A stretch of 64,000 nt of DNA from Cyanophora paradoxa CCMP329 (taxonomy: Eukaryota > Plantae > Glaucophyta), in NCBI GenBank assembly GCA_004431415.1, contig QPMI01000691.1, forward strand, positions 1 to 64,000. Direction: 5' to 3'. This document shows positions 9,541 through 34,645 of the stretch, piece after piece. Made by a program: the position numbers and the translations under genes. The notes below the pieces were generated by a model. That model searched no databases. It saw only the letters and a program-made list of their open reading frames with translations, and had not been told where the DNA came from. Positions within the stretch are counted from its first letter, which is position 1, and every line of letters begins with the position of its first letter.

Positions 9541-9541
9541 G

Positions 9542-10444: not shown

Positions 10445-10450
10445 CGCGTG

Positions 10451-11100: not shown

Positions 11101-11136
11101 TTTGGTATATGCGAAACTGAAAATATTCGTAGCTCG

Positions 11137-14269: not shown

Positions 14270-14367
14270 TCTATAATAGGGTGAGATAATTATTTCAGTG
14301 AACTATACCCTTAAGTACTTTTCAGAAAAAGGAGTAACTCCAATCAATTTTTTCGGACCCCCCACCC

Positions 14368-14559
14368 TCATACATAGGGATTTCGCTTCCTTGGCCGCCC
14401 CCTCCGGTCAGGAACAGCCTCTTCAAACAAATACCTGATACACAATAAAGCGCCTGCTCTGTACGTACTAACCCTTACATATTTCTTGTGAAGCTCTCGA
14501 AACTCTGGGTCATTTTGAATCCTGCGTTGGATGTATCTCATTTGCTTTGTGTATGCCAT
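14368..14559 (-). CDS. Small basic AT-hook protein
   Basis: NDPEFRELHKK and RRGRPRK; resembles the product of 9310-9540. Confidence 0.6.
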   Translation of the reverse strand: MAYTKQMRYIQRRIQNDPEFRELHKKYVRVSTYRAGALLCIRYLFEEAVPDRRGRPRKRNPYV

Positions 14560-14754
14560 TGCTTGATGCGTTTCCTCTTATAGTATAGTTGAGATTTCTT
14601 TTTAAGTAGATTTCACTCTTCAAAACGTTGGAGGGATAGCTTACATGCGCGTACTATTTTTTGGGTGGGCACCCAGTTACTCAGCCTCTTCTCAATCTTG
14701 CCACATTGAGTAATCATCTGATTAATCCAATGAACCTCCCCAAATCACAGAAAT

Positions 14755-15111
14755 TTATGTCCCAGAAGCATGTTTAAATAATGAGTTTCTGAGCTCTTTG
14801 CTCTTTTGAACAAAGATATTCTTGACATCACTCCACAAGAGTTTGATAATTGGATTTGACCCTTCACCATACTGCCATGTAGAGGAGTTACCAACCCGAA
14901 AATACCATAGTCCTTGTTTTTTACCTTCAGGGATTCTGTAAAGCACCTTGTGACTAAGAGCCAGACGGGCAACTTCAGCTATTGACTGGTCAGTGCCCTC
15001 CATGATACATCGTGAGACAGCTTGTTTAATAACCTCCTCATTCTTGGATTGGACAGCATCCACTTCAGTGGTGTCAATCGTGAGAATTCGAGCATCCATT
15101 GTGACAATCAT
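14755..15111 (-). CDS. D5 N-terminal-domain-like protein
   Basis: GTDQSIAEV...LY...LWYF...TW pattern resembles D5_N; the 3' end may be frameshifted. Confidence 0.45.
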   Translation of the reverse strand: MIVTMDARILTIDTTEVDAVQSKNEEVIKQAVSRCIMEGTDQSIAEVARLALSHKVLYRIPEGKKQGLWYFRVGNSSTWQYGEGSNPIIKLLWSDVKNIFVQKSKELRNSLFKHASGT

Positions 15112-15216
15112 CTTGATCTCCTTTGAATATAGTAGAGAAAATAATCTTTAAGTAGTAACTATACCAGCACTTAAAGAAATAAAATGTTCCCTATATAGAA
15201 TACAGCCCCCACAACC

Positions 15217-18200: not shown

Positions 18201-18312
18201 AGATTATAAAGACTATGTGCTCCACCAAAAACCCAAGCAAATCGAAATGACTGTCCAAAAGAAGCTTGAAAATGAGACCTACAATGTGAAGATGTCAAAG
18301 ATTGCTTTCTAA
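15217..18312 (+). CDS. polB: Protein-primed family B DNA polymerase (pPolB) with C2H2 finger and endonuclease VII-like insert
   Basis: FIPLPEWL..K.AIVNV.NKDNRCF; CYIC...VRDHDHQTG...CRKCN; IRGG; YLDANNLYG; KIMNNSLFGKT; TDTDS. Intact 1031 aa. Confidence 0.96.
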   Translation: MPRPSHYQIKELQDKILGNLAFLLANHSISESEYESYISQTNKKLKGLQALNRELLGKIDALDETDRLGQIQVEQTTTTQVRGDEYTTLINEHRALNNKYIDFTIRAQHQILTTQEFIDTYSEELHTRLQDAINSQMSIKTRFTFVCRFSKANNSRDFITKHIYSTYAIMTRSRILTKETAKLAKECQSQINVTDSYRLDSIQALRVIVLSFKPISGGAFIPLPEWLKNKRAIVNVNNKDNRCFEYSILSYIHKDEVNSHKRNETSQYRRWFKKELNFEGIEFPVKADADTIDLFENLNPAISVNIYDPSNSTEEINLLHNSSSRNRKHQVDLLLITDENGNSHYTTIFSMSRVLAKNDKQRLHFCKTCSNHFKTEEKLQSHIQSKRCVDWKTSAGETPKQPTFIEYGLKHLSKTVFLPVIAYCYFDFETDQEGMFKIKSISLTALHNNRVVLTKTHSSIYELLSTLDKVAPELFKAIFTNVPMSLTKEQKRTHYLAKTCYICQGDFTQDNYKVRDHDHQTGDFVGTACRKCNLHRRTSNLTKIPIVTNDLSLSGTQIFKAVALNPEKRVEVLAKSFDNYMSITWGCFKFIDIKNFIDYGVQNVEGLMEKFQLFRQKSHKTFGMDAAHYVSSPGLSWDSMLSITKPKIELLSNLDMYNMVEGMIRGGLSIMNHKYAKKERDRHIIYLDANNLYGYALSQKLPLSNFQWHPEPSNYDLSSAEGAILEVDIHYPQHLHQLHKELPLVIKRTEDGLQAACQDISNFVVSKPLLQFMVAQGLKVTKIHRVLTFTEAAFMKPYVESNAQNRREAASKPEKDFFKIMNNSLFGKTIEKVRGRSNVKIATNEKQFMKYARSPLLKAETRLSDSAVAFEMLQKDVKLDKPIAIGAFVLDLAKLRLFDYYYNTIKRKWPDCKLLFTDTDSLCLQINSKTIAKDLQDIDTHPTELGKFKNEFEGRTIIEYAGVRPKCYSIKTDDEEIKKLAGVCKETIQTDLSFQDYKDYVLHQKPKQIEMTVQKKLENETYNVKMSKIAF

Positions 18313-18323
18313 TCCCAATATAG

Positions 18324-19694
18324 ATGTCATCAAAGATCACACGCAGACAAACAGAGTACGATGTGAGTATATTGCCAATCCCAATCCCTCAAGAGGAGAG
18401 AGGGGGTCGCATTCAGAAAAAGAGTGACCTGAAAGCTTTAGTTCCTGCGGATATCCCAACTGCCATTGCTGTGCCCCACTTGGATCCCTTAGCAAGGACA
18501 TTCTATGACACCAAGGTAGGATTTAAAGGCCTGGCTTCATTGGCCAAAGAGCTTCCAGATGTGCCAAGAAAGACAATCCGTAGATTCTATGATGCCCAAG
18601 AAATCAACCAGATAAATAAACCCCTCCCATCTGCCAAGAAGACTGCCTATATCCCAATAAGACAGCCACTCGACTGCTATGCCATAGACCTAATCTTTTA
18701 TCCCTCATATAGCAAACAGAATCAAGGCTATAACACATTCCTCACAGCTGTAGAAAATACCACAAGGCTCGGCTTTATTATTCCAATGAGGGGAAAGACA
18801 GCAGAAAGCACATTGAACGCATTTAAGGAGCTTGAGCAACAAGTCCCTCGTCCAATTGTGAAGATACAAAGTGATGCTGGGAGCGAATTCCTGAACAAAG
18901 TATTTAAAGACCATTTAGAAGCCCAGATGATTGAGCACCAAGTTTCGCAGGTTGGAGATCACAATAGCCAAGGCCGAATAGAAGCCTTTAATCGCACAAT
19001 AAAGAAGCTAATTAACTCGTATTGTATAGCGAATAATACTGTAAAGTTTTTCGACAAGCTCCAAGATTTTGCCTACAACTACAATAATACCATCCACTCA
19101 GCAACGGGGATGAAACCAGCAGAGACCACAGAGGTACATGTTCCTCTCATACTCGCAAAAGAAAACGAGAAATTCATGAAGTCAATTGAATATCTAAAAG
19201 ACTATCCAGCAGGGAGCCACGTGAGAACTAAAATAGAGAAAAGCCCATTTGCCAAGCAGGGCAATAATTGGAGCCGCGAAATATTCACAATAGAAGGAGT
19301 GGAGGGGTTCAAATTCAAACTAAGGGACATTTCTGGCAAACTAATAGATCGACTTTATGCCCACTACGAATTACAGAAAGTGGAAGCCGTGGAGTTCTTG
19401 GAAGCCCCATCAATTAATGTCATTGAAGAGGCAAAGAAAGAGGCCAGAACAGAGCGACTTTTGGCCAGAGAAGGGATTGAGAGGGCTCCAAATGTGCCAG
19501 ATAAACCATTATTGGAGGACAGAGCAGGGAAGAAGAAGAAACAAGGGAGAGAGTTGGAGAGATTGAGGGTGGCGGGAACAGAGAGATTAGCAGGGGGAGC
19601 AGAGGCAGTAAGGTGGTATAGAGATTTCTCAAATTCAAAGGAGACCTATGAAGCTCCAGCAATTTCCACGAGATCAAGGAGGAGGGCAGGATGA
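18324..19694 (+). CDS. int: Retroviral-like (rve) DDE integrase
   Basis: Catalytic D-D-E in AIDL / QSDAGSEF / RIEAFNRTIK; YNNTIHSATGMKP; Polinton-type C-terminus G..VR...K.PFAK...NWS.EIFTI...Y..ELQKV. Confidence 0.95.
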   Translation: MSSKITRRQTEYDVSILPIPIPQEERGGRIQKKSDLKALVPADIPTAIAVPHLDPLARTFYDTKVGFKGLASLAKELPDVPRKTIRRFYDAQEINQINKPLPSAKKTAYIPIRQPLDCYAIDLIFYPSYSKQNQGYNTFLTAVENTTRLGFIIPMRGKTAESTLNAFKELEQQVPRPIVKIQSDAGSEFLNKVFKDHLEAQMIEHQVSQVGDHNSQGRIEAFNRTIKKLINSYCIANNTVKFFDKLQDFAYNYNNTIHSATGMKPAETTEVHVPLILAKENEKFMKSIEYLKDYPAGSHVRTKIEKSPFAKQGNNWSREIFTIEGVEGFKFKLRDISGKLIDRLYAHYELQKVEAVEFLEAPSINVIEEAKKEARTERLLAREGIERAPNVPDKPLLEDRAGKKKKQGRELERLRVAGTERLAGGAEAVRWYRDFSNSKETYEAPAISTRSRRRAG

Positions 19695-19741
19695 GACATC
19701 TGTTACACATTATTGTTTTTTCTTAGCTATTGGTATTCAAA

Positions 19742-20140
19742 ATGCTTGCCAAAGGTTACCATGTGATGCTCGATTTCCAATTCAGCCAACCAATTAGCGA
19801 CCATGTGGGGCTCTCTAAATGGCTCATGAATGTCAGTGAAGACATCATCAAGAAATATGGAATACAGGTTGTCCACAAACATGCTGAGATTTTTGATGGC
19901 ACCAAATCACCCCCTGGATTTGCCCAAGTATTATTATTAGATGAAAGCCATTGCTCTGCTCATTGCTACAGTGATCAAGGCATGTTGGCAATAGATATAT
20001 TCAGCTGTGGAAAACAGGCAGAAAGGAATACAAGTTTAATTGCTTTTGAGCTGGAGGAGGAGATAAACAAATATGCTGTTGGATTTGGGGCAGTGATCAA
20101 AAAGAGATTACACCATGAGAAGAAGAGATTTGAAGTTTAA
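19742..20140 (+). CDS. speD: S-adenosylmethionine decarboxylase proenzyme, prokaryotic SpeD/SpeH type
   Basis: GYHVMLD...PPGFAQVLLLDESHCSAHCY...AIDIFSCG: the E|SH autocleavage site and DxFxCG motif; about 132 aa. Confidence 0.9.
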   Translation: MLAKGYHVMLDFQFSQPISDHVGLSKWLMNVSEDIIKKYGIQVVHKHAEIFDGTKSPPGFAQVLLLDESHCSAHCYSDQGMLAIDIFSCGKQAERNTSLIAFELEEEINKYAVGFGAVIKKRLHHEKKRFEV

Positions 20141-20164
20141 GAGAGGGGCAGGAGAGGCAAGAGA

Positions 20165-20256
20165 GGCAGGAGAGGCAGGAGGGTTATATGTAAAATCCCA
20201 CACAAGAGGGGATTCCTTAGGAAAGTTTACAAATAACCCTCCTGCCTCTCCTGCCT
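20165..20256. repeat. 30-bp inverted repeat (hairpin) just after the last PLV gene
   Basis: ggcaggagaggcaggagggttatatgtaaa pairs with tttacaaataaccctcctgcctctcctgcc (1 mismatch). Confidence 0.9.
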
Positions 20257-20378
20257 AATTGGTGCCGAATCCAAGCTTCTAATACCCCAGAGGCGGCCAA
20301 CATACTGGTGCCAAAAAGACATGATTAATACCCTAAGACCTGAAATAAATGCTTACTACCCTAGTACCTGAAACGCGC

Positions 20379-20453
20379 ACACATAGGGATACCCCTGATC
20401 CAAGCCTGTAGGCCGAAGGCCGGAGGGCTTGGATCAGGGGTATCCCTATGTGT
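20379..20453. repeat. Perfect 28-bp inverted repeat with an inner GGCC-GAA-GGCC hairpin
   Basis: acacatagggatacccctgatccaagcc (20379-20406) and ggcttggatcaggggtatccctatgtgt (20426-20453). Confidence 0.97.
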
Positions 20454-20777
20454 CAGGTGGGCGGCGGGAGCGAAGAGGCCGACGACGAGAATGGCGGCTG
20501 GACGGAGCGCGGTGAGATGATTCACACCACCATCAACATCAAGATGCCCCGATTCGTCGTCGAGGCCTTTTCGAAGCTCCCGCTCGAGGGGCGCTGGGAC
20601 CTTCAGAGGATACTCGACGAGGGCTTCATGAAGAGCACGAACAATGTGTGCAGGCAGTGCACGCCAAAGACGCCCCGCGCCACCCTCCGCGACTTGATAG
20701 CACACAAGACCCAGGCCGATTTCGACTCAATCACCCTCCCCGTAGTTAGCGAGTTCCTTGCCGAGTACGGGCTGTAG
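20448..20777 (+). CDS. Hypothetical protein (5' end overlaps the hairpin, so possibly truncated)
   Basis: 109-aa GC3-rich ORF containing a CxxC. Confidence 0.45.
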   Translation: MCQVGGGSEEADDENGGWTERGEMIHTTINIKMPRFVVEAFSKLPLEGRWDLQRILDEGFMKSTNNVCRQCTPKTPRATLRDLIAHKTQADFDSITLPVVSEFLAEYGL

Positions 20778-20806
20778 CTTTACGTCTCGATGTTTTCTGA
20801 GTTCTA

Positions 20807-21645
20807 TGCAGGTGATTATGAGTGCCTCTACGGATATCGATTGGGACCAGGTAGCATCCGATCTCGATGCCGTGTTAGATCAGGCAATTGGGGGGGATGA
20901 TGAGGCTTTGCACACGGTCGTTGAAATCCTTCATAGGGCTCTCATCATTGAGCGCCTTCCCCCCGAGCAGCACCTTCCCTTGGTGAACGCTATTCTCTTT
21001 ACGCTGCATCTTCTTAGGGCAGGCGACGAGCCGGTAGACTTCCAGGGCATGCTGCAACAGATAGGTTTGGAGACAATGACGGCAAGGCTCATCAATAGGG
21101 TATGGGAGAAGCTCCTGGAATCAAGGGGCCGCAAAGGGAAGGGGCCTCAGAGGCAGACATGGTGGCAGTGGTTCTGGAGGCAGGCCCCCGAAGGTGGAGC
21201 GAAGACCTCTGAAACCTCCGAGTCGCCGGAGTCCGGCGGCACACCGGGGGGCTCGGGTACGTCAACCGAAGCAGGAGGCAAAAAAGAAGAGAGCGAGAGC
21301 GAGCCCAAGCCTGATCCGGTGGCTGCGGCTAGTACCTCCAAGCCCGAAAGGTTCCTGTACAGGGGGCCCGCAGGGGGGAATCCGGAGCGTCCGCCTCCCC
21401 GGAACCCCCCCAAACCCGATCCGGTCGTTCGCATGCTGGCGGGCCTTCGCAACCGAATCTATTTCCCGCAGCTGCCCGTGCCGTACCCGGGCTACATCGC
21501 CCCCATGGAGCCAATCTACGTCCGCGCACCGGCGGCGCCCCCCATCCCGCTCCTCCCAGGGCTGCAGTACATGCCGCTCGATTCGGACGCGAGCGAACAC
21601 TGGGGGGGCCCTTCCACTTACCCGTGGTCGCCACACGCTTTCTAG
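20807..21645 (+). CDS. Hypothetical protein: helical N-terminus, Pro-rich disordered C-terminus
   Basis: Long intronless ORF collinear with its neighbours; the start codon is uncertain. Confidence 0.55.
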
Positions 21646-21698
21646 CTATCCCGGACCCAGGGAGAATCGATTTATTTGCACCCCCTCCCTTGTGAGCG

Positions 21699-22694
21699 AT
21701 GACCTCGGAATTCTTCCACGTCAAGCGGGAGTGGGGGATCGAAGCGGCCTCGTACGCCGCCGCATTCGTCCGAGCGCACCCGAAATGGGCGCAAATGTCC
21801 GGCGCCATCGGTTCGGGGTGCGACTGGGACGCCGACTGCATTGCCGAGCAGCTGGCCCGCGTGGCCCGGATGGCGTTCAGCCGCATCCCGAATTCGATCA
21901 TGCCGTTTTTTATGGACAGGGACAGCGCCGCGCTCGAGCCCTTCCGCGTCCTTTCGCTGGGCACGGGGAACGGGTTCGCGGAGGGGTTCCTGGTCTCGTG
22001 CTTCCTGCGCAGGTTCCCGAGGGTGCGGCTCATCACCGTGGACTGGTCGGAGCCCTGCGCGGAGTTTCGAGAGTTCATGGCGCGCTCGAGGGCCGAGCAC
22101 GTGCACTACTACTCCATCTCGCAGGCGATCGTGAGCGAGTTCTCGGTCGACGGGGAGCTGCGGCCCAACGTGCACTTCGTATTCTCGTTCAACCCCGTCT
22201 TCATCTCCAGCCCGGGATCGGCAATGGGCGCGCAGGATAGGATGTTCCTGCGCGCCTTTTACGATACAATGGAGGCGACGGGGTACACCCCGGGGCTGCT
22301 TGGGGTAAATGCGCACGGCAACAAGCAGCCGGTGGTGCCTTTCTCGGCATTCCACGCCCCCTTCTACCCCACGGACGAAGATCTCGATATCGCGCTGGGC
22401 CAGGTGAACTACAAGAACCCCGACAATCTAGCCACCCGCCGCCCGGGGGATTACGACCACCCATCCCTGCAGCCCCACCTCAGACGCGAGCGGCTCCAGG
22501 CGCTTTTTGACCCGCTGCTGCAGTCCGGGGCCCTAATTAAACTGCCGCAGGGGGCCTTTGACGGCCTTCTCCAGCTCGACCAGCAATCGCGGGAGCTCCC
22601 CGAGGGCCCGCGCACGTTCGAGCCCTTCGTGCGGCCACAGATAGACAGGGCGTCGCGGTACGGGATCGAGTCGGGGCCGTTCTATTCGGAGTGA
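21699..22694 (+). CDS. Putative class I SAM-dependent methyltransferase-fold protein
   Basis: FRVLSLGTGNGFAE (motif I) followed by RLITVD (acidic end of beta-2); 331 aa. Confidence 0.55.
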   Translation: MTSEFFHVKREWGIEAASYAAAFVRAHPKWAQMSGAIGSGCDWDADCIAEQLARVARMAFSRIPNSIMPFFMDRDSAALEPFRVLSLGTGNGFAEGFLVSCFLRRFPRVRLITVDWSEPCAEFREFMARSRAEHVHYYSISQAIVSEFSVDGELRPNVHFVFSFNPVFISSPGSAMGAQDRMFLRAFYDTMEATGYTPGLLGVNAHGNKQPVVPFSAFHAPFYPTDEDLDIALGQVNYKNPDNLATRRPGDYDHPSLQPHLRRERLQALFDPLLQSGALIKLPQGAFDGLLQLDQQSRELPEGPRTFEPFVRPQIDRASRYGIESGPFYSE

Positions 22695-22727
22695 GTTGGC
22701 CTTGGTTGGTTTACTATCGGTAAGCGT

Positions 22728-22968
22728 CTTAGGAGAACACAGGCTCGACGGTACAGTGTTTCACAGGCTGGGCGAAACAGTGTTTCGTGCAGACCGGCTG
22801 CGGAATACCGAGCCGGCTTAGGAAACACAGGCCTGACGATACAGTGTTTCACAGGCTGGGCGAAACAGTGTTTCGTGCAGACCGGCCGTGGAATACCGAG
22901 CCGGCTTAGGAAACACAGGCTCGGCGATACAGTGTTTCACGGGCTGGGCGAAACAGTGTTTTGTCGAG
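22728..22968. repeat. Tandem repeat, about 2.7 x 88 bp
   Basis: cttagg(a)aaacacaggc...acagtgtttcacaggctgggcgaaacagtgttt starts at 22728, 22817 and 22905. Confidence 0.9.
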
Positions 22969-23029
22969 TTCGATTGCGAAATTGTCGACCCCCGAGCCCT
23001 ATCGCGGTAGCACTCGACCGCCCCTCGAA

Positions 23030-23310
23030 TATCGCCAGTTCCATACGAACATAGCTTCAGGTCGGCCCCCCTTGACTTTAGTAGTCACGGGGTCGGGGGC
23101 GGACCCTATGTTCGTACGGAACTGGGGATACTCGAGCCGAGAAACACAGGCCGGAGAACACAGGCTTGGCGAAACACAGGCCGACCGTTGGCCGGCTCAA
23201 ATAGCGCCAGTTCCATACGAACATAGCTTTGGGGGCGCCCCCGTGACTTCTATAGTCATGGGGGCCAGCCTGTGTTCCTATGATCGTACGGAACTGGGGA
23301 TACTCGAGCG
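23030..23310 (-). repeat. Two diverged, inverted copies of the 154-bp palindromic unit
   Basis: cgccagttccatacgaacatagcttc...ttgactttagtagtcacggggtcggggg...ctatgttcgtacggaactgg is the reverse complement of the array unit at 29049-31350. Confidence 0.9.
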
Positions 23311-23353
23311 CGTTAAAAGCCCCCGAGATTTCGTGAGCGCCAGAATTGACGTA

Positions 23354-24382
23354 ATGGACGACAAAGCCGGCCTCGAGCTTCCAGACACCCGTACCCGGGA
23401 TGGCACGGGCAGGCGGTTGGCGAAGTACTTCTGCCCGGCCCCGGATTGCAAGTACGCGGGAGTGCCGAAAACGAACAAGGGCCTGTGCCGCACGTGCTCG
23501 ATGAAGGCGCGGTGGGGGGCCGACAAGAACTGGCGCGCCTTCCCCAAGCAGGCCAAGACCGTCGGGAGCTGCAGCGGGTGCTCACGTGAAATCAAGCGCA
23601 ACCGCAACCTGAAGTGGCTGGAAGATGGCAAGTTCCTGTGCTGGCGGTGCAAAAAGGGGGAAGAGGCAGCGGCCGGCCCGGGGGGCGCCAAGGCATGGCC
23701 CGAGAAGTGCGCGTTCTGGTTCTGCGGCGACAGGGATACCCCCAAGTACCTCGAAAAGGGCCAGATCACCGTCAGCTGGCACCCGATCCACAAGGCGCAT
23801 CTCTGCACACTTCACCACCACACGGACTACCGCTGGCCGTCGCTGGTCTGCAAGCTGCTGCAGGTCGTGAACAGGCGCCTGGGGGGTACATCGCTGACGT
23901 CCCTGCTCGAGAGCTCGCACGAGATCAGGGACGAGTGGCACAGGGACTTTTTCGTCGGCGACAACTGGCGCAGGTTCTTCGACAGCCCGCCGAACCAGGA
24001 GCCAATCTTCTGCGAGCCCTCCCCGTTCGATGGGGACCTATCGGAGCTCTCGGTGATCGAGAAAAAGCCGCTCGTACCCCTCTGCAACTTCAAGGCGCGC
24101 CTGCACGCCCAGTGGATGGTCCGGCCGCCAACGGATACGGATTTAGTGCAGGCCATCGCGGCGGCCGTCGACGGGTCCCTTTTTGAGCCTACAAAACCGA
24201 GCGAGAACCTCGTGGTTCGCGGGCTGCAGCGATTGGTCGAGTGGTGGAGGCCGGCGCCCCAAGCGGCACAGAGGCAGGGCGAGAGGAAGCAGAAGGAGTG
24301 GGAGGAGCGCCAGGCCAAGCGCAAGGCCAAGAGGGAGTCAAAGAAGGGGGAGGGGGCAAAAAGGCGGAAGGGGGGGTGCTAG
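23354..24382 (+). CDS. Multi-zinc-finger protein with basic (NLS-like) tail
   Basis: CPAPDC..CRTC, CSGC..CWRC and CAFWFC..CTLHH; KRKAKR..KRRK tail. The upstream part of the listed ORF is repeat read-through. Confidence 0.65.
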   Translation: MDDKAGLELPDTRTRDGTGRRLAKYFCPAPDCKYAGVPKTNKGLCRTCSMKARWGADKNWRAFPKQAKTVGSCSGCSREIKRNRNLKWLEDGKFLCWRCKKGEEAAAGPGGAKAWPEKCAFWFCGDRDTPKYLEKGQITVSWHPIHKAHLCTLHHHTDYRWPSLVCKLLQVVNRRLGGTSLTSLLESSHEIRDEWHRDFFVGDNWRRFFDSPPNQEPIFCEPSPFDGDLSELSVIEKKPLVPLCNFKARLHAQWMVRPPTDTDLVQAIAAAVDGSLFEPTKPSENLVVRGLQRLVEWWRPAPQAAQRQGERKQKEWEERQAKRKAKRESKKGEGAKRRKGGC

Positions 24383-24665
24383 GTACCCCAGAAGCCACCC
24401 CCTGTATGATCCCACGCTCAAGGGATGAATTAATTCTTCTCGATGATTTCATTTCCCCACCCTCCGCCACCCCCGAGGCCCAAGCCGGAGTACGCGTGGC
24501 TGGCACGACCCGTGGCCCGGAGCGTCTCCGAGTACCAGGCAACGACCCGCTGCTGCCCCAGAGGGCACCCCATGTACGACCCCGCGCTGGATTCGGATGA
24601 TTGATGTGGATCCGTAGGCCCGAGGGGTCCCGCGTTAAATTTTATGTGGGGAGGTTGACAATACG

Positions 24666-25112
24666 ATGGCAGGCTCGGCTGTTCTGATTCTCGTGATCCT
24701 GCTGCTGGTTGTGGGCGTGGGGGCGGCGGTCCTGTTGATGGGCAGCAGCGGGGGGAGCGCGGGTGGGTTTGCATTGAACGTTGACGATGAGGTGACACTT
24801 GAAATGAAGACGACGAACACAGCCCTTTGTGGCAGCGAGTCGACCCCCGCCAAGATCAAGGCGACGGGGGTCGTCGAAAAAACCAAGGAGGATGGTTCGT
24901 CTGTGATGGTCCGCTGGAATAAGCTGGACACCCTCGAGGGCAGAGCAGGCCTCGATATCGCCGGCCAGTGCAAATGGGCCCGAGGGGACAATGCTGAATG
25001 GAACAAGGTGTGGATGGGCGATGGCGAATTCAAGCCAACGGGGTGGGCACTGCCGGTGGTCCTGGAGTACAAGGACTTCAAGGACCGCCTGAAGAAATCA
25101 TCGGCCTTTTAG
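24666..25112 (+). CDS. N-terminally membrane-anchored protein
   Basis: AVLILVILLLVVGVGAAVLL transmembrane segment, Gly/Ser linker and a small beta-rich domain with two Cys. Confidence 0.65.
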   Translation: MAGSAVLILVILLLVVGVGAAVLLMGSSGGSAGGFALNVDDEVTLEMKTTNTALCGSESTPAKIKATGVVEKTKEDGSSVMVRWNKLDTLEGRAGLDIAGQCKWARGDNAEWNKVWMGDGEFKPTGWALPVVLEYKDFKDRLKKSSAF

Positions 25113-25138
25113 ATTTTCCTGGCCCATATAGATAACCC

Positions 25139-26231
25139 ATGTCTCTGAAATCTTCGGGGGCCCTCCGGGCCTCCGAGATCAGCCTCGCCTTTGCAATCGC
25201 GTCGTCGAAGTTCAGTATGTCGGAGTTCTACAGTAATGCATCAACCTACTACGGCTTTGATGTCGCAGGCCTCCCTGCAGAGGGGTCCAAGATTCGGTTC
25301 AAGAACTTTTTCGGAACAAAGCCGAAACCTATTCTGTTCAAGGTGAACTCGGCCCCTGTCGCGCCCACTCTCATTGCGGAAAACACGTACTGCATGCAGC
25401 TTGTTTCGACCACAGCCACGAACACGTTCGAGGTACGAAAGTTGCAGGAGTGCGACATCCTGATTGTTGGCGGGGGTGCAAGTGGGGGTGGTTGTATTGG
25501 AGGCGGTGGAGGCGCCGGTGGGGTGGTTTACATGGTGAAAAAGACCTTTACGCCTGGAAACACGTACACCGTTAAGGTGGGGGCTGGAGGGGAGGCAACT
25601 GTCAACGCTCAATACTCTCCTGGAAAAGCTGGCCAAGACAGTTACATTCAGGTATCTGGGGCGGATGTGGTTTTTGACGCCATCAACCTACGGGGCCGGG
25701 GAGGTGGGACTGGGGGGATATATAATTCCAGCTTTGGGCCATTCCCAGGTAATAGTGGGGGCAGTGGTGGGGGCGCAAGTTGCAGCAATGGCTCTCCGGG
25801 GTTCAATGGCGGAACCAAAACACAGGGACTGACCTACTGGAATGGGCTTCAGTATATATTGGGGGGGGCTGATGCTCAAAGGTCGCCCGCTGGGGGGTAT
25901 TTTACTTCCGGTGGCGGTGGTATGGGGACTGCCCCGGTGGCTGTCGTAGATGGATTCCCAGGTATACAAAACAGCATCACAGGCACAGCAGTATGGTATG
26001 CGGCTGGAGGGGGGGGGGGGGGCGATCGCAACCAACCCGTATGGTATTGGTGGAAACGGAATCGGTGGCAACGGTGGACGTTCAACATCAGAGCAAGCAA
26101 ACATATTATCCACAGCGGGACAGGACGGAACTGGGTCTGGAGGAGGGGGGGGTGGGTATGGGTACAACGGGTTCAACTTTGTGGGTGCCAAGGGTGGCAG
26201 CGGCGTGGTCATCGTACGCTACACCATCTGA
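25139..26231 (+). CDS. Glycine-rich virion fibre-like protein (frameshift in the poly-G at ~26008-26022)
   Basis: N-terminal SSGALRASEI..F..SMSEFY..LP.EG..I.FKNFFG motif of viral fibre proteins; ILIVGGGASGG..GGGGAGGVVY; YAAGGGG; ends GGSGVVIVRYTI* in the shifted frame. Confidence 0.8.
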
Positions 26232-26627
26232 GAAGACATCTCGATGATCGGGACCAACGGCGGATTCACTGCCACCCTGGTGTATCTTATGTATAGTGTG
26301 GTCGAGAATGAGGCTGCTTTCAGTTTCTCAGTGAACCTGAATTCAATACCCCCTGCTGTCTTCCTTTACCGCGCTGGAACAGCAGTGTATATTGCTTCAT
26401 ACGGAGGGGCCAACAATACAACCCTGCTGTATAATCACCCCGCCTTTGCATTCAATGGCACATGTACATGGCAGCAAAAGTCCGGTCGGACAGAACTATT
26501 GCCGGGCTTGGGTAGTTTGTCTTTGTTGTGCCTGTCCAGCAATCTACACTACCTGCTGAAACTTTGATTGTAATAACCTGCCATATATCGTCCAAGAGTA
26601 ACCATTTTTCTGCCATCCACCCAACAA

Positions 26628-27254
26628 ATGCGTACCCCCCTCAACCTTGCCCCCCTCATCGGCGCGGCATGGTGTGCACGCGGCGCAAAACGGGCCGCCC
26701 TTGTCCACGCACTGCGGCTCCTGTTCACTTCCGGTACCCCCACGGCGCCCCTCCCCCCCACCGCCGCCCATCGCCTACCCCTGCTCATGGCCGACGGGCT
26801 CGGCGACCTGCAGCTGTGGGTGCGCCAGAGCGGCATCGGGGGCCCCCTGTGGCGGGGCCGAACCGCGCGGTTCCTCCGCAGCATACCGCGCCTCTCGAAA
26901 CCGAGAAGGCGCGCGCTCACCCTGTACCGGGGGACAAAGGCCCCCGGGGTAGACGAGTCGGGGGAGAGAGAAATGGTGCCGCTACTGCGACCCCTATCGG
27001 CCACGCGCTCACGGGAGGTTGCCGCTACTTTCGCGAACGAAGCGGGCCCCGAGGGGTACATGCACATCATCCGCGTGCCCGCAGGGGTACCCCTGCTGGA
27101 CGTCGCATTACACTCGAAGAACTTTGCGAGCGTGCCGGGGTCCGACGAGCGGTCGGTCGCACTGCGCGAAAAGGAGGTGATCCTCTACAGGCACGTGCTC
27201 GTCCTCAAAAAGAGGGAGGGGCGCGTGTCGCACTGGGAGGCGCGCGCACGGTAG
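26628..27254 (+). CDS. R-S-E class ADP-ribosyltransferase (VIP2/Alt-like)
   Basis: LTLYRG, PLSATRSREVAATF, HIIRVPAG..LLDV and EKEVIL in canonical order and spacing. Confidence 0.8.
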   Translation: MRTPLNLAPLIGAAWCARGAKRAALVHALRLLFTSGTPTAPLPPTAAHRLPLLMADGLGDLQLWVRQSGIGGPLWRGRTARFLRSIPRLSKPRRRALTLYRGTKAPGVDESGEREMVPLLRPLSATRSREVAATFANEAGPEGYMHIIRVPAGVPLLDVALHSKNFASVPGSDERSVALREKEVILYRHVLVLKKREGRVSHWEARAR

Positions 27255-27258
27255 CGGC

Positions 27259-27630
27259 TCAAATCGAGTCGTTCCTGAGGATCTGCATCTGGTTGCACTT
27301 GGCGACTCGCAGCTGGTCGGAGCGTGTCTGGAGCCCCGTCGTGCCGTACCCGTACGCGTTCCCGCACCACTGAGCGTAGGCCTTTTGCGCCTCCTCGTCC
27401 CACTTGGTGTACCCGGAGCCCTCCAGCCAGCGCGCGAGGTTCGGATCGGTCGCGATCGGGTCCGGGATTGCGCCGCCTGTACCCCCTGCCGTGACCGAGG
27501 GGGCCGAAGCGCTCGGCCCCGAACGGCGCATCATAAAGTAAGCGAGCACGATCGCCCCACCGATCGCGATCATTGTCCACGGGATCTCCCGGCGAGGAGG
27601 GGCGGGGCGGGGGGCGTACTGGAAGTCCAT
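27259..27630 (-). CDS. Small single-pass membrane protein
   Basis: WTMIAIGGAIVLAYFMM transmembrane segment; 123 aa with two Cys. Confidence 0.6.
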   Translation of the reverse strand: MDFQYAPRPAPPRREIPWTMIAIGGAIVLAYFMMRRSGPSASAPSVTAGGTGGAIPDPIATDPNLARWLEGSGYTKWDEEAQKAYAQWCGNAYGYGTTGLQTRSDQLRVAKCNQMQILRNDSI

Positions 27631-27673
27631 TTGCTGTTACTCCCACAAGATAAATGATGTACCCCTTTCAGCC

Positions 27674-27943
27674 ATGAATCTGTCCCGCTACCGTGACTCG
27701 CTGGGCCGGCCGGGCGAAGGGGTGCACTTTCACTTAGGGGGCGTAGCGATCGTTGACGTCATCGCATCCGTCGCGGCCGCTCACGTCATTGGGGCCGGAG
27801 GGCGCAAGTTTTCTGCTTGGAGGAGGACTCTGCCACATGCAGAATATAGTCCGGCCTTCGTTGCCCTAGGAATCCAGCAGATGGTCGGCAGTGGTAGGAG
27901 TAAAACCCATGGGGGAACTTCTATTCGTGTTTCTTTTCTCTAG
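27674..27943 (+). CDS. Small NCLDV-like membrane protein (C-terminus possibly disrupted)
   Basis: YRDSLGRPGEGVH..LGGVAIVDV resembles the Y....G.P..G.H.....A+VD motif I recall from small giant-virus proteins. Confidence 0.45.
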   Translation: MNLSRYRDSLGRPGEGVHFHLGGVAIVDVIASVAAAHVIGAGGRKFSAWRRTLPHAEYSPAFVALGIQQMVGSGRSKTHGGTSIRVSFL

Positions 27944-28294
27944 TTCAGAGTATATGCTCCCTTGTGGGGCGAGTTGACGTTATAGGCCTCATCCTTGGAT
28001 GTTGTGCCGTGTCGGCTCAGTACTTTTGTCTTAGTGATTATGAACTGAATAGATTACTGCGTAACATAAAAAAAAAAGGCCTCGGACTTTGCAAAAATTT
28101 GCAGGGCTCTCAGCGTTTGAAGAGTTCACCGTCAGAGTCTGGGGGGCCGTCCACCTATCACCTGAAGGCCGGCAACGGTTCGCTGCTCACCTGAGGTAGG
28201 CTGATTGCTGTACCCCTTACCCAAGCCCCAATCCCTCAGCCACCCCAGCCCAGTTGCCACGTGATTCAAGGGCGAAGGGAGAAAATGGTTATAT

Positions 28295-28757
28295 TCAGAA
28301 CCGAACGCGGCGCAGGGCAAGGGAGGACTGCGAACGGCTATGAAGGTTGCACATGCCAAGGAAGTCGCACGTGCAGGGGGGGATTTTGATAGCTGGCTTA
28401 AGAATGGTTCTACGGATAGGGATGGCCCTGGGGGCCAAAGAGGTGGGCCCCGGCTCCCCGGGCTCGAGCTTGACAACCGGCGCCGGTTCGTCCTCCGAGG
28501 CGCCCTCCGAATCGGCTTCAATGATTGTCTCCAGGGGGGTCCCAAACGACACCCTACGCCGAGGAGGCTGAGGGGTAGGCTCGTATTCGTCGTCCGAGTC
28601 CGAGAGCTCAATATAATCTATGACGCGGGGCTCGGCGGGCTGAGGGGCAGGCTGCGATGAAAAAAGAGAGGTAAGCAAAAGGCAGGAAAAACAGGCAAAG
28701 GCAGCGGCATACCTTGGCGTCGTTTGTGAAGTCGAAAACGTCGAGGATAGCGGCCAT
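28295..28757 (-). CDS. Spliced SIM-rich, PP1-docking disordered protein (gene A)
   Basis: Exon 1 MAAILDVFDFTNDAK, then a phase-0 GTATGC...TCGCAG intron. Exon 2 has VIDYIELSDSDDE, RRRVSF, VKLE, TILK, CxCx5Cx2H and terminal RRVRF. Confidence 0.7.
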
Positions 28758-28825
28758 GATTGCAAGGGCTTAGAGGGAATTTCGCGGACTAGAGCTTAAA
28801 GTGTGTGCAGGACTGAGCCAGAACC

Positions 28826-28965
28826 GCCTTTATAGGTTGGGCTATGCGGAAAGAGGTACTTCCCATTATGTGGAAAGTACCTCTTTCCGCATAGAATTGG
28901 GGGTACTGTATCCTCGATCATTGGGAAAAACAAATAATGGATTCCACATAGAATCAGGGGTACAG
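28826..28965 (-). promoter_or_regulatory. Shared promoter module, copy 1 (upstream of gene A)
   Basis: CTATAAAG on the minus strand, preceded by repeated TTCCGCATAG and GTACCTCTTTCC motifs. Confidence 0.65.
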
Positions 28966-29048
28966 GAGTTAATCAATAATAAGAGAGAAAGGGAACTGCT
29001 GGGATTCAAACCTGTCAATGTTTGGACTCTGTCGAGTTCAGAGAGCAT

Positions 29049-31350
29049 TCCCGTGTCGCGTATCGCCAGTTCCGTACGAACATAGGGTAGCCCCCCGACC
29101 CCGTGACTACTAAAGTCAAGGGGGGCCGGACCGAAGCTATGTTCGTATGGAACTGGCGCTATTCGAGCCGGCCAACGGTCAGCCTGTGTTTTTCGCGTGC
29201 ATCCCGTGTCGCGTATTGCCAGTTCCGTACGAACATAGGGTAGCCCCCCGACCCCATGACTACTAAAGTCAAGGGGGGCCGGACCGAAGCTATGTTCGTA
29301 TGGAACTGGCGCTATTCGAGCCGGCCAACGGTCAGCCTGTGTTTTTTCGCGTGCATCCCGTGTCGCGTATCGCCAGTTCCGTACGAACATAGGGTAGCCC
29401 CCCGACCCCGTGACTACTAAAGTCAAGGGGGGCCGGACGGAAGCTATGTTCGTATGGAACTGGCGCTATTCGAGCCGGCCAACGGTCAGCCTGTGTTTTT
29501 CGCGTGCATCCCGTGTCGCGTATCGCCAGTTCCGTACGAACATAGGGTAGCCCCCCGACCCCGTGACTACTAAAGTCAAGGGGGGCCGGACCGAAGCTAT
29601 GTTCGTATGGAACTGGCGCTATTCGAGCCGGCCAACGGTCAGCCTGTGTTTTTTCGCGTGCATCCCGTGTCGCGTATCGCCAGTTCCGTACGAACATAGG
29701 GTAGCCCCCCGACCCCGTGACTACTAAAGTCAAGGGGGGCCGGACGGAAGCTATGTTCGTATGGAACTGGCGCTATTCGAGCCGGCCAACGGTCAGCCTG
29801 TGTTTTTTCGCGTGCATCCCGTGTCGCGTATCGCCAGTTCCGTACGAACATAGGGTAGCCCCCCGACCCCGTGACTACTAAAGTCAAGGGGGGCCGGACC
29901 GAAGCTATGTTCGTATGGAACTGGCGCTATTCGAGCCGGCCAACGGTCAGCCTGTGTTTTTTCGCGTGCATCCCGTGTCGCGTATCGCCAGTTCCGTACG
30001 AACATAGGGTAGCCCCCCGACCCCGTGACTACTAAAGTCAAGGGGGGCCGGACGGAAGCTATGTTCGTATGGAACTGGCGCTATTCGAGCCGGCCAACGG
30101 TCAGCCTGTGTTTTTTCGCGTGCATCCCGTGTTGCGTATCGCCAGTTCCGTACGAACATAGGGTAGCCCCCCGACCCCGTGACTACTAAAGTCAAGGGGG
30201 GCCGGACGGAAGCTATGTTCGTATGGAACTGGCGCTATTCGAGCCGGCCAACGGTCAGCCTGTGTTTTTTCGCGTGCATCCCGTGTCGCGTATCGCCAGT
30301 TCCGTACGAACATAGGGTAGCCCCCCGACCCCGTGACTACTAAAGTCAAGGGGGGCCGGACGGAAGCTATGTTCGTATGGAACTGGCGCTATTCGAGCCG
30401 GCCAACGGTCAGCCTGTGTTTTTCCCCTGCATCCCGTGTCGCGTATCGCCAGTTCCGTACGAACATAGGGTAGCCCCCGACCCCGTGACTACTAAAGTCA
30501 AGGGGGGCCGGACGGAAGCTATGTTCGTATGGAACTGGCGCTATTCGAGCCGGCCAACGGTCAGCCTGTGTTTTTCGCGTGCATCCCGTGTCGCGTATCG
30601 CCAGTTCCGTACGAACATAGGGTAGCCCCCCGACCCCGTGACTACTAAAGTCAAGGGGGGCCGGACGGAAGCTATGTTCGTATGGAACTGGCGCTATTCA
30701 AGCCGGCCAACGGTCAGCCTGTGTTTTTTCGTGTGCATCCCGTGTCGCGTATCGCCAGTTCCGTACGAACATAGGGTAGCCCCCCGACCCCGTGACTACT
30801 AAAGTCAAGGGGGGCCGGACCGAAGCTATGTTCGTATGGAACTGGCGCTATTCGAGCCGGCCAACGGTCAGCCTGTGTTTTTTCGCGTGCATCCCGTGTC
30901 GCGTATCGCCAGTTCCGTACGAACATAGGGTAGCCCCCCGACCCCGTGACTACTAAAGTCAAGGGGGGCCGGACGGAAGCTATGTTCGTATGGAACTGGC
31001 GCTATTCGAGCCGGCCAACGGTCAGCCTGTGTTTTTTCGCGTGCATCCCGTGTCGCGTATCGCCAGTTCCGTACGAACATAGGGTAGCCCCCCGACCCCG
31101 TGACTACTAAAGTCAAGGGGGGCCGGACCGAAGCTATGTTCGTATGGAACTGGCGCTATTCGAGCCGGCCAACGGTCAGCCTGTGTTTTTTCGCGTGCAT
31201 CCCGTGTCGCGTATCGCCAGTTCCGTACAAACATAGGGTAGCCCCCCGACCCCGTGACTACTAAAGTCAAGGGGGGCCGGACCGAAGCTATGTTCGTATG
31301 GAACTGGCGCTATTCGAGCCGGCCAACGGTCAGCCTGTGTTTTTTCGCCT
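29049..31350. repeat. Tandem array, about 15 x 153-154 bp, near-identical palindromic units
   Basis: Each unit has cgccagttccgtacgaacatag ... ctatgttcgtatggaactggcg arms around an inner hairpin; copies differ by about 1-2 nt. Confidence 0.98.
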
Positions 31351-31492
31351 GTGTCCGGTGTCGCGTTTCTAGCTGCTCGAGATTCGAGAAACTTTTTTGG
31401 ACCCCATACAAGCCCGGAGCCATACTTAAAGCGTCATTGGAGTGATGCAAAGGCCTGTTACAATGTTCGAAAAACACTCAAGTTTACAAATC

Positions 31493-32195
31493 CTATTCAG
31501 GTAACATAGCCCTAATGCGATCTGACCGGCGCTTGACTATGGTCTTCTGAACAGGCACTGAAACTACAGAACGCACAGGGGGCTCGGAGGTTTTGAAGGG
31601 CTCCAAGGATACAGGAGATAGCATTTTAACTACGATAACTCTATCAGGGATCTCATTATCAAGGCTGCCAACGGGGGCAAGTGACTGCGAATCAATCGGG
31701 ACGCCGGCTGACGTAGAAAAAGAAAATTGCTCCGGATAGGGATAGCGACGGCGGATCATCTTGTTTATTGAGTCCGTCTTGATGACAAAAATGTTTGAAT
31801 CGTAGACAAAAAAGCCAGCGTCATGAATAGATTCTCTTTTCAACACAATCTGCCTGCGTTGAGTGGGTATGGTCTCCGGATCGATTGTTTGGTTGACTCT
31901 GCGGCAAACAATGAGAGGCTGCACAGAACACAAAAACAACAAAAAAGGCTCACTGGGTGATCTCGTCACCGTTCTGAATGCCAAAGTCCGCATAGGTAAG
32001 GCAAAAGTCAATGTGAGCAATCTTCGCAATGAGAACACCCGCCCGCTCTACTCGAAGGTGAAGGCCAGCCGTCCATAGATCCCAAGTCCCGTGACGATCA
32101 CGGAAAAAGGTGCTGAAAGTGATTGAATCGCTAAGTCGGACTTCGAAAAGCCCCTGGCGCTCCTTGCCGTTGAAAATGACGTAGGTGCTATCCAT
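31493..32195 (-). CDS. Ubiquitin-like domain protein, spliced (gene B)
   Basis: Exon 1 FEVRLSDSI...LTYADFGIQNGDEI parallels ubiquitin LEVEPSDTI...RTLSDYNIQKESTL. A GTGAGC..GCCGCAG intron at 31899-31953 joins it in frame to exon 2, which ends KRRSDRIR. Confidence 0.7.
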
Positions 32196-32237
32196 TACGT
32201 TGTCCGGAAGCACTGAGACTACGACGACTTGAGCTGG

Positions 32238-32400
32238 AAAGTGTGAGCAAGAATGAGGCGGATCGGGCCTTTATAGATCCGGCTATGTGGAAAGAGGTAC
32301 TTTCCGCTGTGGGGAAAGAGGTACTTCCGCATAGAATTTCGGGGTGTACCCCCAATTCTATGCGGAATCCATCATTTGTTTTTCCCTAATGATTGCCGAT
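32238..32400 (-). promoter_or_regulatory. Shared promoter module, copy 2 (upstream of gene B)
   Basis: Same TATA plus TTCCGCATAG module; ~120 bp is the reverse complement of 33696-33812. Confidence 0.7.
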
Positions 32401-32765
32401 GCCGTACCCCGTAATAGGAAAAGGACACTGCTGGGATTCGAGCCTGTCATTGTTTGGACTCTGTTTTGAGAGTTGAGTTGAGTTCCACGTCGAACCAGGG
32501 GTATGGCATCGGCAATTATGCGCTCACCTGAACCGATGCTTGCCGTTGGGTACGCTATTGCTGTCGACCAGGGGGTACGGCAAAGGCGACAGGGGTACAG
32601 GATATAGGTGCCGATTCGATCCTGCCATCGGCCTGCGTCTGCCCGAGACTCGAGGAACGCCGTTTGAACACGCCAGCCCATCGATGCCCCCCTCCCTTAT
32701 GCGTTTGCCAGCGGAACAACGCAAAAGTCTGTTACAGCATTCAAAAACGCTCAAGTTTACATATC

Positions 32766-33463
32766 CTATTTAGCCAACCTAGCCCTAATGCGTTCTGACC
32801 TGCGCTTAACTATGGTTTTCTGAACGGGCGCTGAAACTACAGAAGGCACGGGGGGCTCGGAGGTTTTGGAAGGCATCTTTGTAACTTTGATAACTCCATC
32901 AGGGAGCTCCTTATCTAGGCTGCCAATAGTTTCGAGAAATCGCCAGCAAATAGGAAAGTTTCCTGTTGAAAAAAACATGTATGGCTCGGGGCAAGGAAAC
33001 TGACGGTGAATAATCTTGCTAATTGAGTCTGTCTGGATTGCATAAAAGCCCGGATAGTATGTTATAAAGCGCTTGCCGTCAACGAAAGAATCCTCCACGA
33101 ACTGAATGCGCCTGCTTTGAGTGGGTATGGCCTCCTGTACAAATGGATTGTTGATTCTGCGGCCCAAGAATTAGAAAAGGATGTGCGAAACAGGAAAAAC
33201 AAAAAGGCTCACTGGATAAGTACGTCATCCTTTTGAATGCCAAAGTCCGCAAAGGTAAGGCAGAAGTCTTCGGGAACTATTTTTGCTACAAGAACACCCT
33301 TCCGCTCTACTCTAATATGGAGACCATCCATCCAAAGATTCCAGAATCCACTATGATCGCGGAAAAACGGGCTGGAATGGAGGGTATTGCTGGGCTTGAC
33401 ACGGTAAAATCCCTGTCGCTCCTTGCCGTTAAAGGTAATCCAAAAATAGTCGCAAGCCGCCAT
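32766..33463 (-). CDS. Ubiquitin-like domain protein, spliced (gene C, paralogue of B)
   Basis: YRVKPSNTL...LTFADFGIQKDDVL; intron 33157-33212 at the same position and phase as in B; shared tail KTSEPPV.SVVS.PVQKTIVKRRS.RIRA and shared 3' flank. Confidence 0.7.
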
Positions 33464-33529
33464 TACGCTATCGGGGTACGCTGAGATAACGACGACTGGA
33501 GCTGGAGAATGTGAGCCAGAATGCCGCAG

Positions 33530-33812
33530 GACGGCCCTTTATAGGTCCGGCTATGCGGAAAGATTCCGCATAAAATGGGGGGTACGGCATCGGCAATCAT
33601 TAGGGAAAAACAAATGATGGATTCCGCATAGAATCAGGGGTACGGCAGCTGCAATCATTAGGGAAAAACAAATGATGGAATCCGCATAGAATCAGGGGTA
33701 CACCCCGAAATTCTATGCGGAAAGTACCTCTTTCCACATAGCGGAAAGTACCTCTTTCCGCATAGCCGGATCTATAAAGCCCGGATCCGCCTCATTCTTG
33801 CTCACACTTTTC
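33530..33812. promoter_or_regulatory. Bidirectional promoter module, copies 3 and 4 (genes C and D)
   Basis: Outward-facing CTATAAAG boxes at ~33537 and ~33772; about seven TTCCGCATAG-like motifs; duplicated caatcattagggaaaaacaaatgatgga. Confidence 0.7.
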
Positions 33813-33852
33813 AGCCTCAGCCAGCAAAATCCCAGCATTCCCCGGTAGCATA

Positions 33853-34395
33853 ATGGCCGCCCCGATTGACGTCATTGATTTTACCCAGGAGGCCGATGAG
33901 GTAAGCGTTTGCCTTAGCCTGGCGCGTTTGCCTTAGCCTGGCGCGTTTGCCTTTGCTGATTTCTCGAAAGCCGCAGCGCCCTTTCCCGATTGAGGTGATT
34001 GTCCTTGACGATTCGGAGGACGAGCGCGATACCCCCGCGGCCCCCCCCCCCCCCGCCCGCGTCCCTCAGCGCCGGCGCCGGCCCCCGAACCGGCGCCGGT
34101 ACCGGCCCCGAAGCGGCTCACGGCCGCTGACATCGATGAGCTCTTCGGAGCCGACGATGACGCGGAGGATGACGCGCCGGCCCCATCCGATATCGGTGAC
34201 GCCTTTGATGAGTCCGATCGTGAGGACTTTTTTACGGTAGCCCCCGCCCGCGATCTCGAGCCCGAGGAGCCTACCCCGGAGCCGGCCCCTCAGCGCGATT
34301 CCCCCACCAAGACCATAGCTAAGCGCAAGCCCTCTAAGGCAGTTAGCAAGGCGCCCTCGCGTGCCTCTTCCCGTCTTAGCGCGAAGAAGATATAG
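33853..34395 (+). CDS. Spliced SIM-rich acidic disordered protein (gene D, related to A); frameshift in the poly-C at ~34042-34054
   Basis: Exon 1 MAAPIDVIDFTQEADE, GTAAGC donor at 33901, then IEVIVLDDSEDE. After the C-run, the shifted frame reads DIDELFGADDD...RASSRLSAKKI*. Confidence 0.65.
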
Positions 34396-34645
34396 CTTGT
34401 TTTGAGCAGCTTTTTGAATCGTAAAAACCTCCCTTTTGGCTGCGATTCCCCTCGCATATCGGCGGCAGCAGGGGGTGGGCAGGCGGTGAGCAGGGGGGTG
34501 GGCAGGGGGGTATGGGGGCCTCAAGGGTCTAGGGGGATACCGCTGATACCGCTGGCCTTGGAGTCATCCCCCCCCTCCCAGCCCGCCCTGCCCCCGCTGC
34601 CCACCGAGGCCGCGCGCGGGGTACGGTGGCACCGGCCCGGCTCCC

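Follow-up and report, generated by a model that had tools for sequence, protein, structure and literature searches.

Several described systems border on the locus reported here. In the RENi family, as the domain layout is set out in PMC549199, an N-terminal low-complexity region is followed by C-terminal SUMO-like domains. A short arginine-rich motif recurs in the HMGN core (RRSARLSA), tardigrade Dsup (RRSSRLTS), and yeast Dot5 (RRSARIAT), and, according to the passages of PMC12487698 and PMC13347269 that treat it, arginines 1, 2, and 5 are required for binding to the acidic patch; for Dot5, the latter source reports in the same context that the three arginines of RRSARIAT are required for nucleosome binding. 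Among SIM-bearing proteins, VIDLT is the SIMb core of PIAS1 in the portion of PMC3901395 concerned with these motifs. Finally, protist Polinton-like viruses (PLVs) carry nested insertions, and the word ubiquitin is absent from the passages of PMC12220804 that describe them.

Here, we describe a group of genes in the glaucophyte Cyanophora paradoxa and compare it with these systems. The window, that is, the whole stretch of DNA analysed, comprises 64,000 nucleotides of contig QPMI01000691.1. Our preferred reading, to which we assign a probability of about 0.4, is that two tandem genes, B and C, encode non-conjugatable proteins of the ubiquitin fold that are tethered to nucleosomes and, together with the SIM-bearing products of the neighbouring genes A and D, modulate ubiquitin- and SUMO-dependent control of host chromatin on behalf of a foreign element.

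Genes B and C: structure, putative ubiquitin register, and tail

The tandem paralogues reported in the preliminary description are borne out: positions 31493-33463 hold two minus-strand genes, delimited by the stop of B (31493) and the ATG of C (33463), whose proteins are identical at 111 of 214 aligned residues (52%; BLASTP E 3e-74). Each gene consists of two exons separated by a single phase-2 GT-AG intron of 55 or 56 nt, the position of which is common to both (Table 1). The evidence of splicing in B is a single contig of depth 2 from sequencing run X18 that skips 31899-31953 exactly, and the DNA run X1 contains no such joint; X18, X19, and X20 are taken as RNA by guess, and the sequencing-run search, in which 17 of 24 rows contained 97-98% of the words and 16 carried a flag as possible source, named no RNA run on record. 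The dN/dS ratio between B and C is 0.44 (NG86, bootstrap CI 0.31-0.63, 209 codons) and, hence, is not about 1, the value that the preliminary description had put forward as telling against its reading. Constraint is stronger over residues 1-81 (0.24, 0.10-0.44) than in the second half (residues 92-174; 0.61, 0.37-1.0). At the 3' ends, dS drops to 0.30, compared with 0.7-1.2 elsewhere, so that these ends look homogenised, and the likeness of the two tails may have come about by 3' gene conversion. GC3 is 0.53 in B and 0.50 in C. The dipeptide GG occurs nowhere in either protein, and the reported lack of a di-Gly tail holds as well. B and C are, in short, real spliced coding paralogues under purifying selection.

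Table 1. Coordinates of the cassette genes, their motifs, and the surrounding elements in the window
Feature	Position	Strand	Basis or remark
Polinton-like virus, multi-copy, outside the cassette	1..20454	.	rve integrase, A32 ATPase, primase-helicase, AdoMetDC
Single-copy island; besides the cassette, densely packed orphan ORFs that apparently lack introns	20455..34450	.	49-61% GC by zone
Gene A (predicted), 133 aa	28295..28757	-	exon 1 28713-28757, intron 28652-28712
Promoter core of A	28828..28849	-
Tandem array of 15 x 154-bp units, palindromic internally, separating B from A	29049..31366	.	related inverted copies at 23024-23308
Gene B, 215 aa	31493..32195	-	ATG 32195, intron 31953-31899, stop end 31493
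Exon 2 of gene B, encoding a possible second beta-grasp, a Pro/Ser linker, and the basic tail	31493..31898	-
HMGN-like RRSxR[LI] motif of B, RRSDRI, residues 204-209	31514..31531	-	pattern search; definition as in the passages of PMC13347269 and PMC12487698 on the motif
Alternative register of B for ubiquitin, the highest-scoring one, across the intron (about residues 57-130)	31751..32027	-	profile scans
Gene B GT-AG intron, 55 nt	31899..31953	-	absent from an X18 contig of depth 2
Gene B exon 1, residues 1-81; first putative ubiquitin-like register	31954..32195	-	covered by X18 and X20 contigs
Promoter core of B	32269..32290	-
Gene C, 213 aa	32766..33463	-	ATG 33463, intron 33212-33157, stop end 32766
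Gene C exon 2	32766..33156	-	X19 contig over 32933-33089
HMGN-like motif of C, RRSERI, residues 202-207	32787..32804	-	pattern search
Predicted 56-nt GT-AG intron of gene C, matching that of B in position and phase	33157..33212	-	prediction from sequence
Gene C exon 1, residues 1-84	33213..33463	-
Promoter core of C	33537..33558	-
Promoter core of D, divergent from C	33758..33779	+
Gene D (predicted)	33853..34395	+	exon 1 33853-33900, intron to about 33976

The aligned proteins were compared with a profile of viral ubiquitins (105 of 122 fetched matches retained, all unique and open upstream) and a SUMO profile assembled in the same way (61 of 120 retained); four of the profile sequences were checked by Pfam, and the two SUMO ones among them match Rad60-SLD (E 3e-17 and 2e-22). 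Over alignment columns 1-178, with no window picked, the ubiquitin profile scored z 5.10 in glocal mode (0/1000 shuffles) and 3.95 in local mode (6/1000). The reversed profile was not significant over the same columns (reached by 112 and 352 of 1000 shuffles), and of 48 real decoy windows per gene, none attained the local and two attained the glocal score. Exon 1 taken alone (columns 1-84) yielded z values of 2.65 and 3.80 (5 and 2 of 500 shuffles), the reversed profile again being not significant, and exon 2 (columns 86-176) yielded -1.33 and 1.41. We consider this likeness weak but above chance. The initial assignment of exon 1 to the ubiquitin type survives as a similarity of that kind, although no B or C exon matches any Ubl family in Pfam at E up to 1, ubiquitin and Rad60-SLD included.

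The register that scores best lies across the intron, at columns 55-132 (z 4.76 and 3.57, in a window picked after the hhalign result had been seen), and residue 130 is also where the scan of the whole region stops. Accordingly, equating exons with domains is unsafe and the domain boundaries are unsettled; since the registers 1-82 and 57-130 overlap, at most one of them can be a complete domain. It is conceivable, if rather doubtful, that B and C contain one ubiquitin-derived domain that spans the intron (about residues 57-130), or else a rearranged polyubiquitin relic employed in an unrelated job, with the basic tail serving as a plain NLS. The AF2 models, which cover single exons, were each built from a 2-sequence alignment and are of low confidence, bear on this point: in that of exon 1 (pLDDT 47), residues 14-49 form a beta-meander, not a beta-grasp, and residues 50-81 are unfolded, the latter in favour of the intron-spanning reading; modelling by exon may have cut a domain in two. 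Against a single intron-spanning domain, residues 82-91, which would have to form a helix, contain a proline and show poor conservation, with identity at 3 of 10 positions, exon 1 is ubiquitin-like on its own, and the tail conforms to the HMGN pattern more closely than would be needed for a generic NLS.

The tail had been described as a terminal KRRS(D/E)RIRA. That motif is present, but the true ends are RIRAMLPE in B and RIRARLAK in C, the quoted motif standing 4 and 3 residues, respectively, short of the end of the protein. A six-frame search of the 64 kb for the strict pattern RRSxR[LI] gave two matches, one in the tail of each of the two proteins, and shuffles place the pattern within the last 20 residues in 3/20000 and 1/20000 cases for the two genes, these regular expressions having been picked after the sequence was viewed. 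A related motif without the second arginine, RASSRLSA, forms the tail of gene D, a partial fit. The tails of B and C thus seem better described as candidate nucleosome-binding motifs of the HMGN type than as ends without GG, and are predicted to dock on the acidic patch.

Promoter, neighbouring genes, and the island

Each of A, B, C, and D is preceded by a promoter core, CCRCATAGC..CTATAAAG, ending TATAAAG, and these four copies are the only ones in the window. The four genes are likely co-regulated, and the common motif suggests that they would be co-expressed. Loose ends of run X1 at 33765 and 33782 indicate that the cassette promoter has at least two more copies in the genome.

Genes A and D are alike at the start, share a short first exon, and encode acidic, proline-rich products; their GC3 is 0.71-0.72. 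By the customary motif definitions, A contains the SIM-like VFDFT and IELSDSD, a psiKxE site (VKLE), and two RVxF motifs, and D contains the SIM-like VIDFT and IEVIVLDDSEDE. A six-frame search of the window for SIM patterns gave five matches, four of them in A and D, with a shuffle P of 0.001-0.004 for each motif; the patterns were partly picked after viewing, and IELSDSD of A lies outside both prior SIMa patterns. The fifth match, IVDLT at 8062, is located in the PLV A32 ATPase, 7771-8520 (+). Through these SIM-like motifs, A and D may bind SUMO. The apparent frameshift in D coincides with a run of C near 34031 in which an X1 contig has one more C and, therefore, is likely an assembly error. 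In the three guessed-RNA runs, no contig covers A and D is represented by 31-letter low-complexity pieces only, which is not evidence of silence.

Read depth separates the cassette from the adjacent PLV. The latter is covered at 570-1080, about 20-fold over single copy, with loose ends at 20454, and hence is multi-copy. Most bins of the island have a depth of 30-45, with 18-25 over D and larger values over repeats, and a contig running into the host flank has a depth of 29, close to that of the island. With B and C at 34-39, the cassette belongs to the single-copy island and not to the PLV, which probably inserted into the island. The left part of the island may be situated on the far side of the PLV and not within the window. 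The PLV labels for polymerase B and capsid were given by eye, and a homologue search with the capsid returned 0/8. At the right end of the PLV, there is a terminal 28-bp hairpin (20379-20453), AdoMetDC being the last gene; a few low-depth guessed-RNA contigs fall on the integrase, AdoMetDC, and this end. The integrase, 18324-19694 (+), has an arginine-rich tail, TRSRRRAG, possibly another chromatin tether. At the other boundary of the island, an X1 loose end at 34451 reveals a second locus with common sequence from 34451 on, a possible terminal repeat of the island.

The island is likely of viral or mobile origin. One ORF, 25139-26296 (+), matches Gly_rich_2 (E 1e-14) and phrog_2295 (E 1e-24), a Gly-rich domain common in phages, and is the one match of this sort in the island within the window, where no capsid, polymerase, or integrase hallmark was found; a run of G near 26010-26025 seems to shift its frame, a possible assembly error. 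Three further ORFs, none with a family match, were noted by eye: 26628-27254 (+), of 208 aa, with an ADP-ribosyltransferase-like R / S-x-T / E-x-E pattern; 21699-22694 (+), an orphan with a methyltransferase motif-I-like stretch; and 23108-24382 (+), an orphan with several CxxC pairs. The 154-bp array and the 88-bp and inverted repeats related to it at 22728-23308 presumably resemble viral origin or enhancer arrays. At 27789-28064 (+), a poly(A)-ended insert present in about 3 copies, with no Rfam match, splits a small ORF at 27674 that we take to be giant-virus-like, and a relative of the insert is abundant in the guessed-RNA runs X19 and X20 (depth 370-720); a search with the small ORF at 27659 found no homologue. 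Rfam on 27600-35200 returned sub-threshold hairpin matches only. The three guessed-RNA runs have no contig over 20.6-27.5 kb, which, again, is not evidence of silence. Far from the island, an exact 189-bp tandem duplication, possibly an assembly artefact, occupies 51703-52080 in a host gene region.

The alternative to a foreign island is a cluster of co-regulated nuclear genes that arose in the host lineage and is specific to it, such as a locus for stress or antiviral responses, as opposed to viral or mobile cargo. The spliceosomal introns, the TATA-type promoters and their additional copies elsewhere in the genome, the single copy number, the GC3 of A and D, and the failure to find either a viral hallmark in the island within the window or a viral homologue among viral contigs would all suit such a cluster. 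We nevertheless deem it unlikely, given that GC is 49% in the B/C region and 49-61% by zone in the island, against 69% in the host flank (43% in the PLV), that the neighbours are dense, intronless orphans, one with a Gly-rich domain of phage or virus type, and that the 154-bp repeat links the cassette to these neighbours. Were the cluster host-born, A-D would still make up an orphan, likely co-regulated gene set concerned with ubiquitin and SUMO in chromatin.

Relatives of B and C were sought widely. The word-index searches gave 0/32 candidates for B exon 1 against longer proteins and 0/77 for the exon-2 alignment; pattern stretches found 0/51 and 0/63 among viral contigs, metagenome contigs 0/200, and the promoter 20-mer had no match in viral contigs. 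Three HMMER matches among 1.84 billion representatives were all repeat proteins that hit short pieces several times and were rejected. PHROGs and NCBIfam held nothing useful for B or C. A narrow literature search, going by its listings, retrieved no description of such a cassette.

The fold and the SUMO question

With respect to the fold, several lines of evidence point to the beta-grasp, which we consider likely for B and C on sequence and model grounds. The ESM Atlas features of B exon 1 are closest to YukD (0.91), EsaB/YukD (0.90), and TmoB (0.90), and all 10 of the 10 best family matches belong to one family or clan; YukD, EsaB/YukD, and TmoB are beta-grasp folds. Because a score of 0.91 (153 shared features) is also reached by 4-10 per 100 shuffled proteins, we treat this match as a lead. 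For C exon 2, residues 1-95, the ESM Atlas gave no usable match. The AF2 model of exon 2 (pLDDT 49, about 50-68 in the core) shows the order E-H-E-H-E, that of the beta-grasp. The domain-by-domain Foldseek check envisaged in the preliminary description divided accordingly: among the rows listed for exon 2, 35 of 44 in PDB (E 0.7-1.5; ubiquitin is over-represented in this database) and 10 of 50 in the viral set (E 0.17-2.0) are of the Ubl fold by title, none significant, and the rows for the exon-1 meander had no Ubl enrichment. VIA-align of the exon-2 model reached at best Z 4.0, with none at or above 5 and with 9 of the 50 listed rows beta-grasp by title amid unrelated folds. A PDB sequence search with B and C produced no match to a Ubl; in hhalign comparisons, the best probability reached by the exons with the ubiquitin and SUMO profiles was 14%, and that of exon 1 against exon 2 was 0.3%, an internal duplication being not detectable.

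Could these genes be real but their ubiquitin likeness a product of chance, the actual fold being another? The want of a significant family, structure, or homologue match and the two of 48 decoy windows at the glocal score would agree with this, but three partly independent signals (ESM features, exon-2 Foldseek rows, and ubiquitin profile) point to the beta-grasp and no matching signal comes from the reversed-ubiquitin and SUMO controls, which makes chance likeness quite improbable.

The SUMO profile scored z -0.80 (glocal) and -0.92 over columns 1-178 and 0.15 and 0.88 over columns 86-176 (exon 2), that is, at most 0.9 per region and 1.5 or less overall. Thus, the weak SUMO likeness once attributed to exon 2 finds no backing in the profile or in Pfam, where Rad60-SLD is absent at E up to 1; exon 2 may, all the same, be a beta-grasp, to judge from its model. 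With the ubiquitin profile above chance and the SUMO profile null, the ancestry of B and C looks to be of the ubiquitin and not the SUMO type. The analogy with Rad60, Esc2, and NIP45, under which tandem non-conjugatable SUMO-like domains would bind Ubc9 and Smc5/6, is accordingly very improbable: the lack of GG, a possible two-domain layout, the SUMO chains among the weak exon-2 Foldseek rows (2 of the 44 listed in PDB), the SIM-like neighbours A and D that tie the locus to SUMO, and the difficulty of detecting even the first SUMO-like domain of RENi itself (PMC549199, in its treatment of that domain) speak for it, but the SUMO profile is null in every region and the domain order is the reverse of that in RENi.

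A putative nucleosome-tethered cassette and the systems closest to it

Under our preferred reading of B and C as nucleosome-tethered, non-conjugatable proteins of the ubiquitin fold, each would carry at least one beta-grasp domain of the ubiquitin rather than the SUMO type, without di-Gly, and would dock through its C-terminal RRSxR[LI] on the H2A-H2B acidic patch of the nucleosome. Nucleosomes would then display a permanent, non-cleavable ubiquitin-like surface, and B and C could compete for acidic-patch readers or for ubiquitin ligases and DUBs. A and D would, in parallel, soak up SUMOylated chromatin factors, and A possibly would also recruit PP1 via RVxF. A more elaborate version, which we offer as a speculation with the odds well against it, is that an integrated protist virus deploys the four genes, under one promoter type, as a chromatin counter-silencing module of two ubiquitin-derived decoys anchored permanently on nucleosomes, together with two SUMO sponges of the poly-SIM kind, one of which carries PP1-docking motifs. 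How integrated protist DNA viruses avoid or manage silencing is a largely open question, and a cassette in which ubiquitin mimics are combined with SUMO-binding motifs and a nucleosome anchor would identify the host pathways at issue, namely, the acidic patch, SUMO, and PP1. The proposal is directly testable with peptides and recombinant nucleosomes and, if true, would widen the range of the HMGN-like motif, which so far takes in vertebrates, tardigrades, and yeast.

What B and C share with HMGN, Dsup, and Dot5 is RRSxR[LI], including its three key arginines, within a tail that is likely disordered (PMC12487698 and PMC13347269, where the motif is treated). They differ from these proteins at position 4 of the motif, which is D or E instead of A or S, and in that the motif is fused to putative ubiquitin-like domains and encoded within a likely foreign island. 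The ubiquitin-domain proteins, such as the giant-virus ubiquitin-like proteins and bacterial YukD/EsaB, resemble B and C in beta-grasp-like features, predicted for the latter, and in the absence of a C-terminal di-Gly; as in non-conjugatable Ubls, the candidate domain of B and C forms part of a larger polypeptide that lacks a terminal di-Gly. In contrast to the ubiquitin-domain proteins, B and C have no sequence homologue found in our searches, possess a putative chromatin-anchor motif, and sit beside genes with SIM motifs. The poly-SIM proteins RNF4 and PIAS1 have clustered VIDLT-like and hydrophobic-plus-acidic motifs in disordered N-termini, as do A and D (PMC3901395, in its account of these motifs), each of which has at least two motifs of the SIM consensus with acidic flanks. 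Unlike RNF4 and PIAS1, A and D contain no RING or other catalytic domain and, consequently, would be adaptors or decoys, not ligases.

RENi proteins (Rad60, Esc2, and NIP45/NFATC2IP) and B/C are alike in the Ubl fold, predicted for the latter, the lack of a C-terminal di-Gly, a likely nuclear location, and, possibly, two domains (PMC549199 and PMC10497417, in the parts dealing with the family). RENi, however, has two C-terminal SUMO-like domains, the second of which is easily detected according to the same part of PMC549199, whereas the putative domains of B and C are N-terminal, ubiquitin-type, and barely detectable, with no Rad60-SLD match at E up to 1. In B and C, the globular part is N-terminal and the basic tail C-terminal, an order opposite to that of RENi, and the acidic low-complexity part, which RENi proteins contain within the same polypeptide, corresponds here to the acidic, low-complexity, SIM-bearing products of separate genes. 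If the counter-silencing module exists, it would amount to a split and inverted analogue of a RENi or STUbL system in which an HMGN-like motif has been put to use by a virus.
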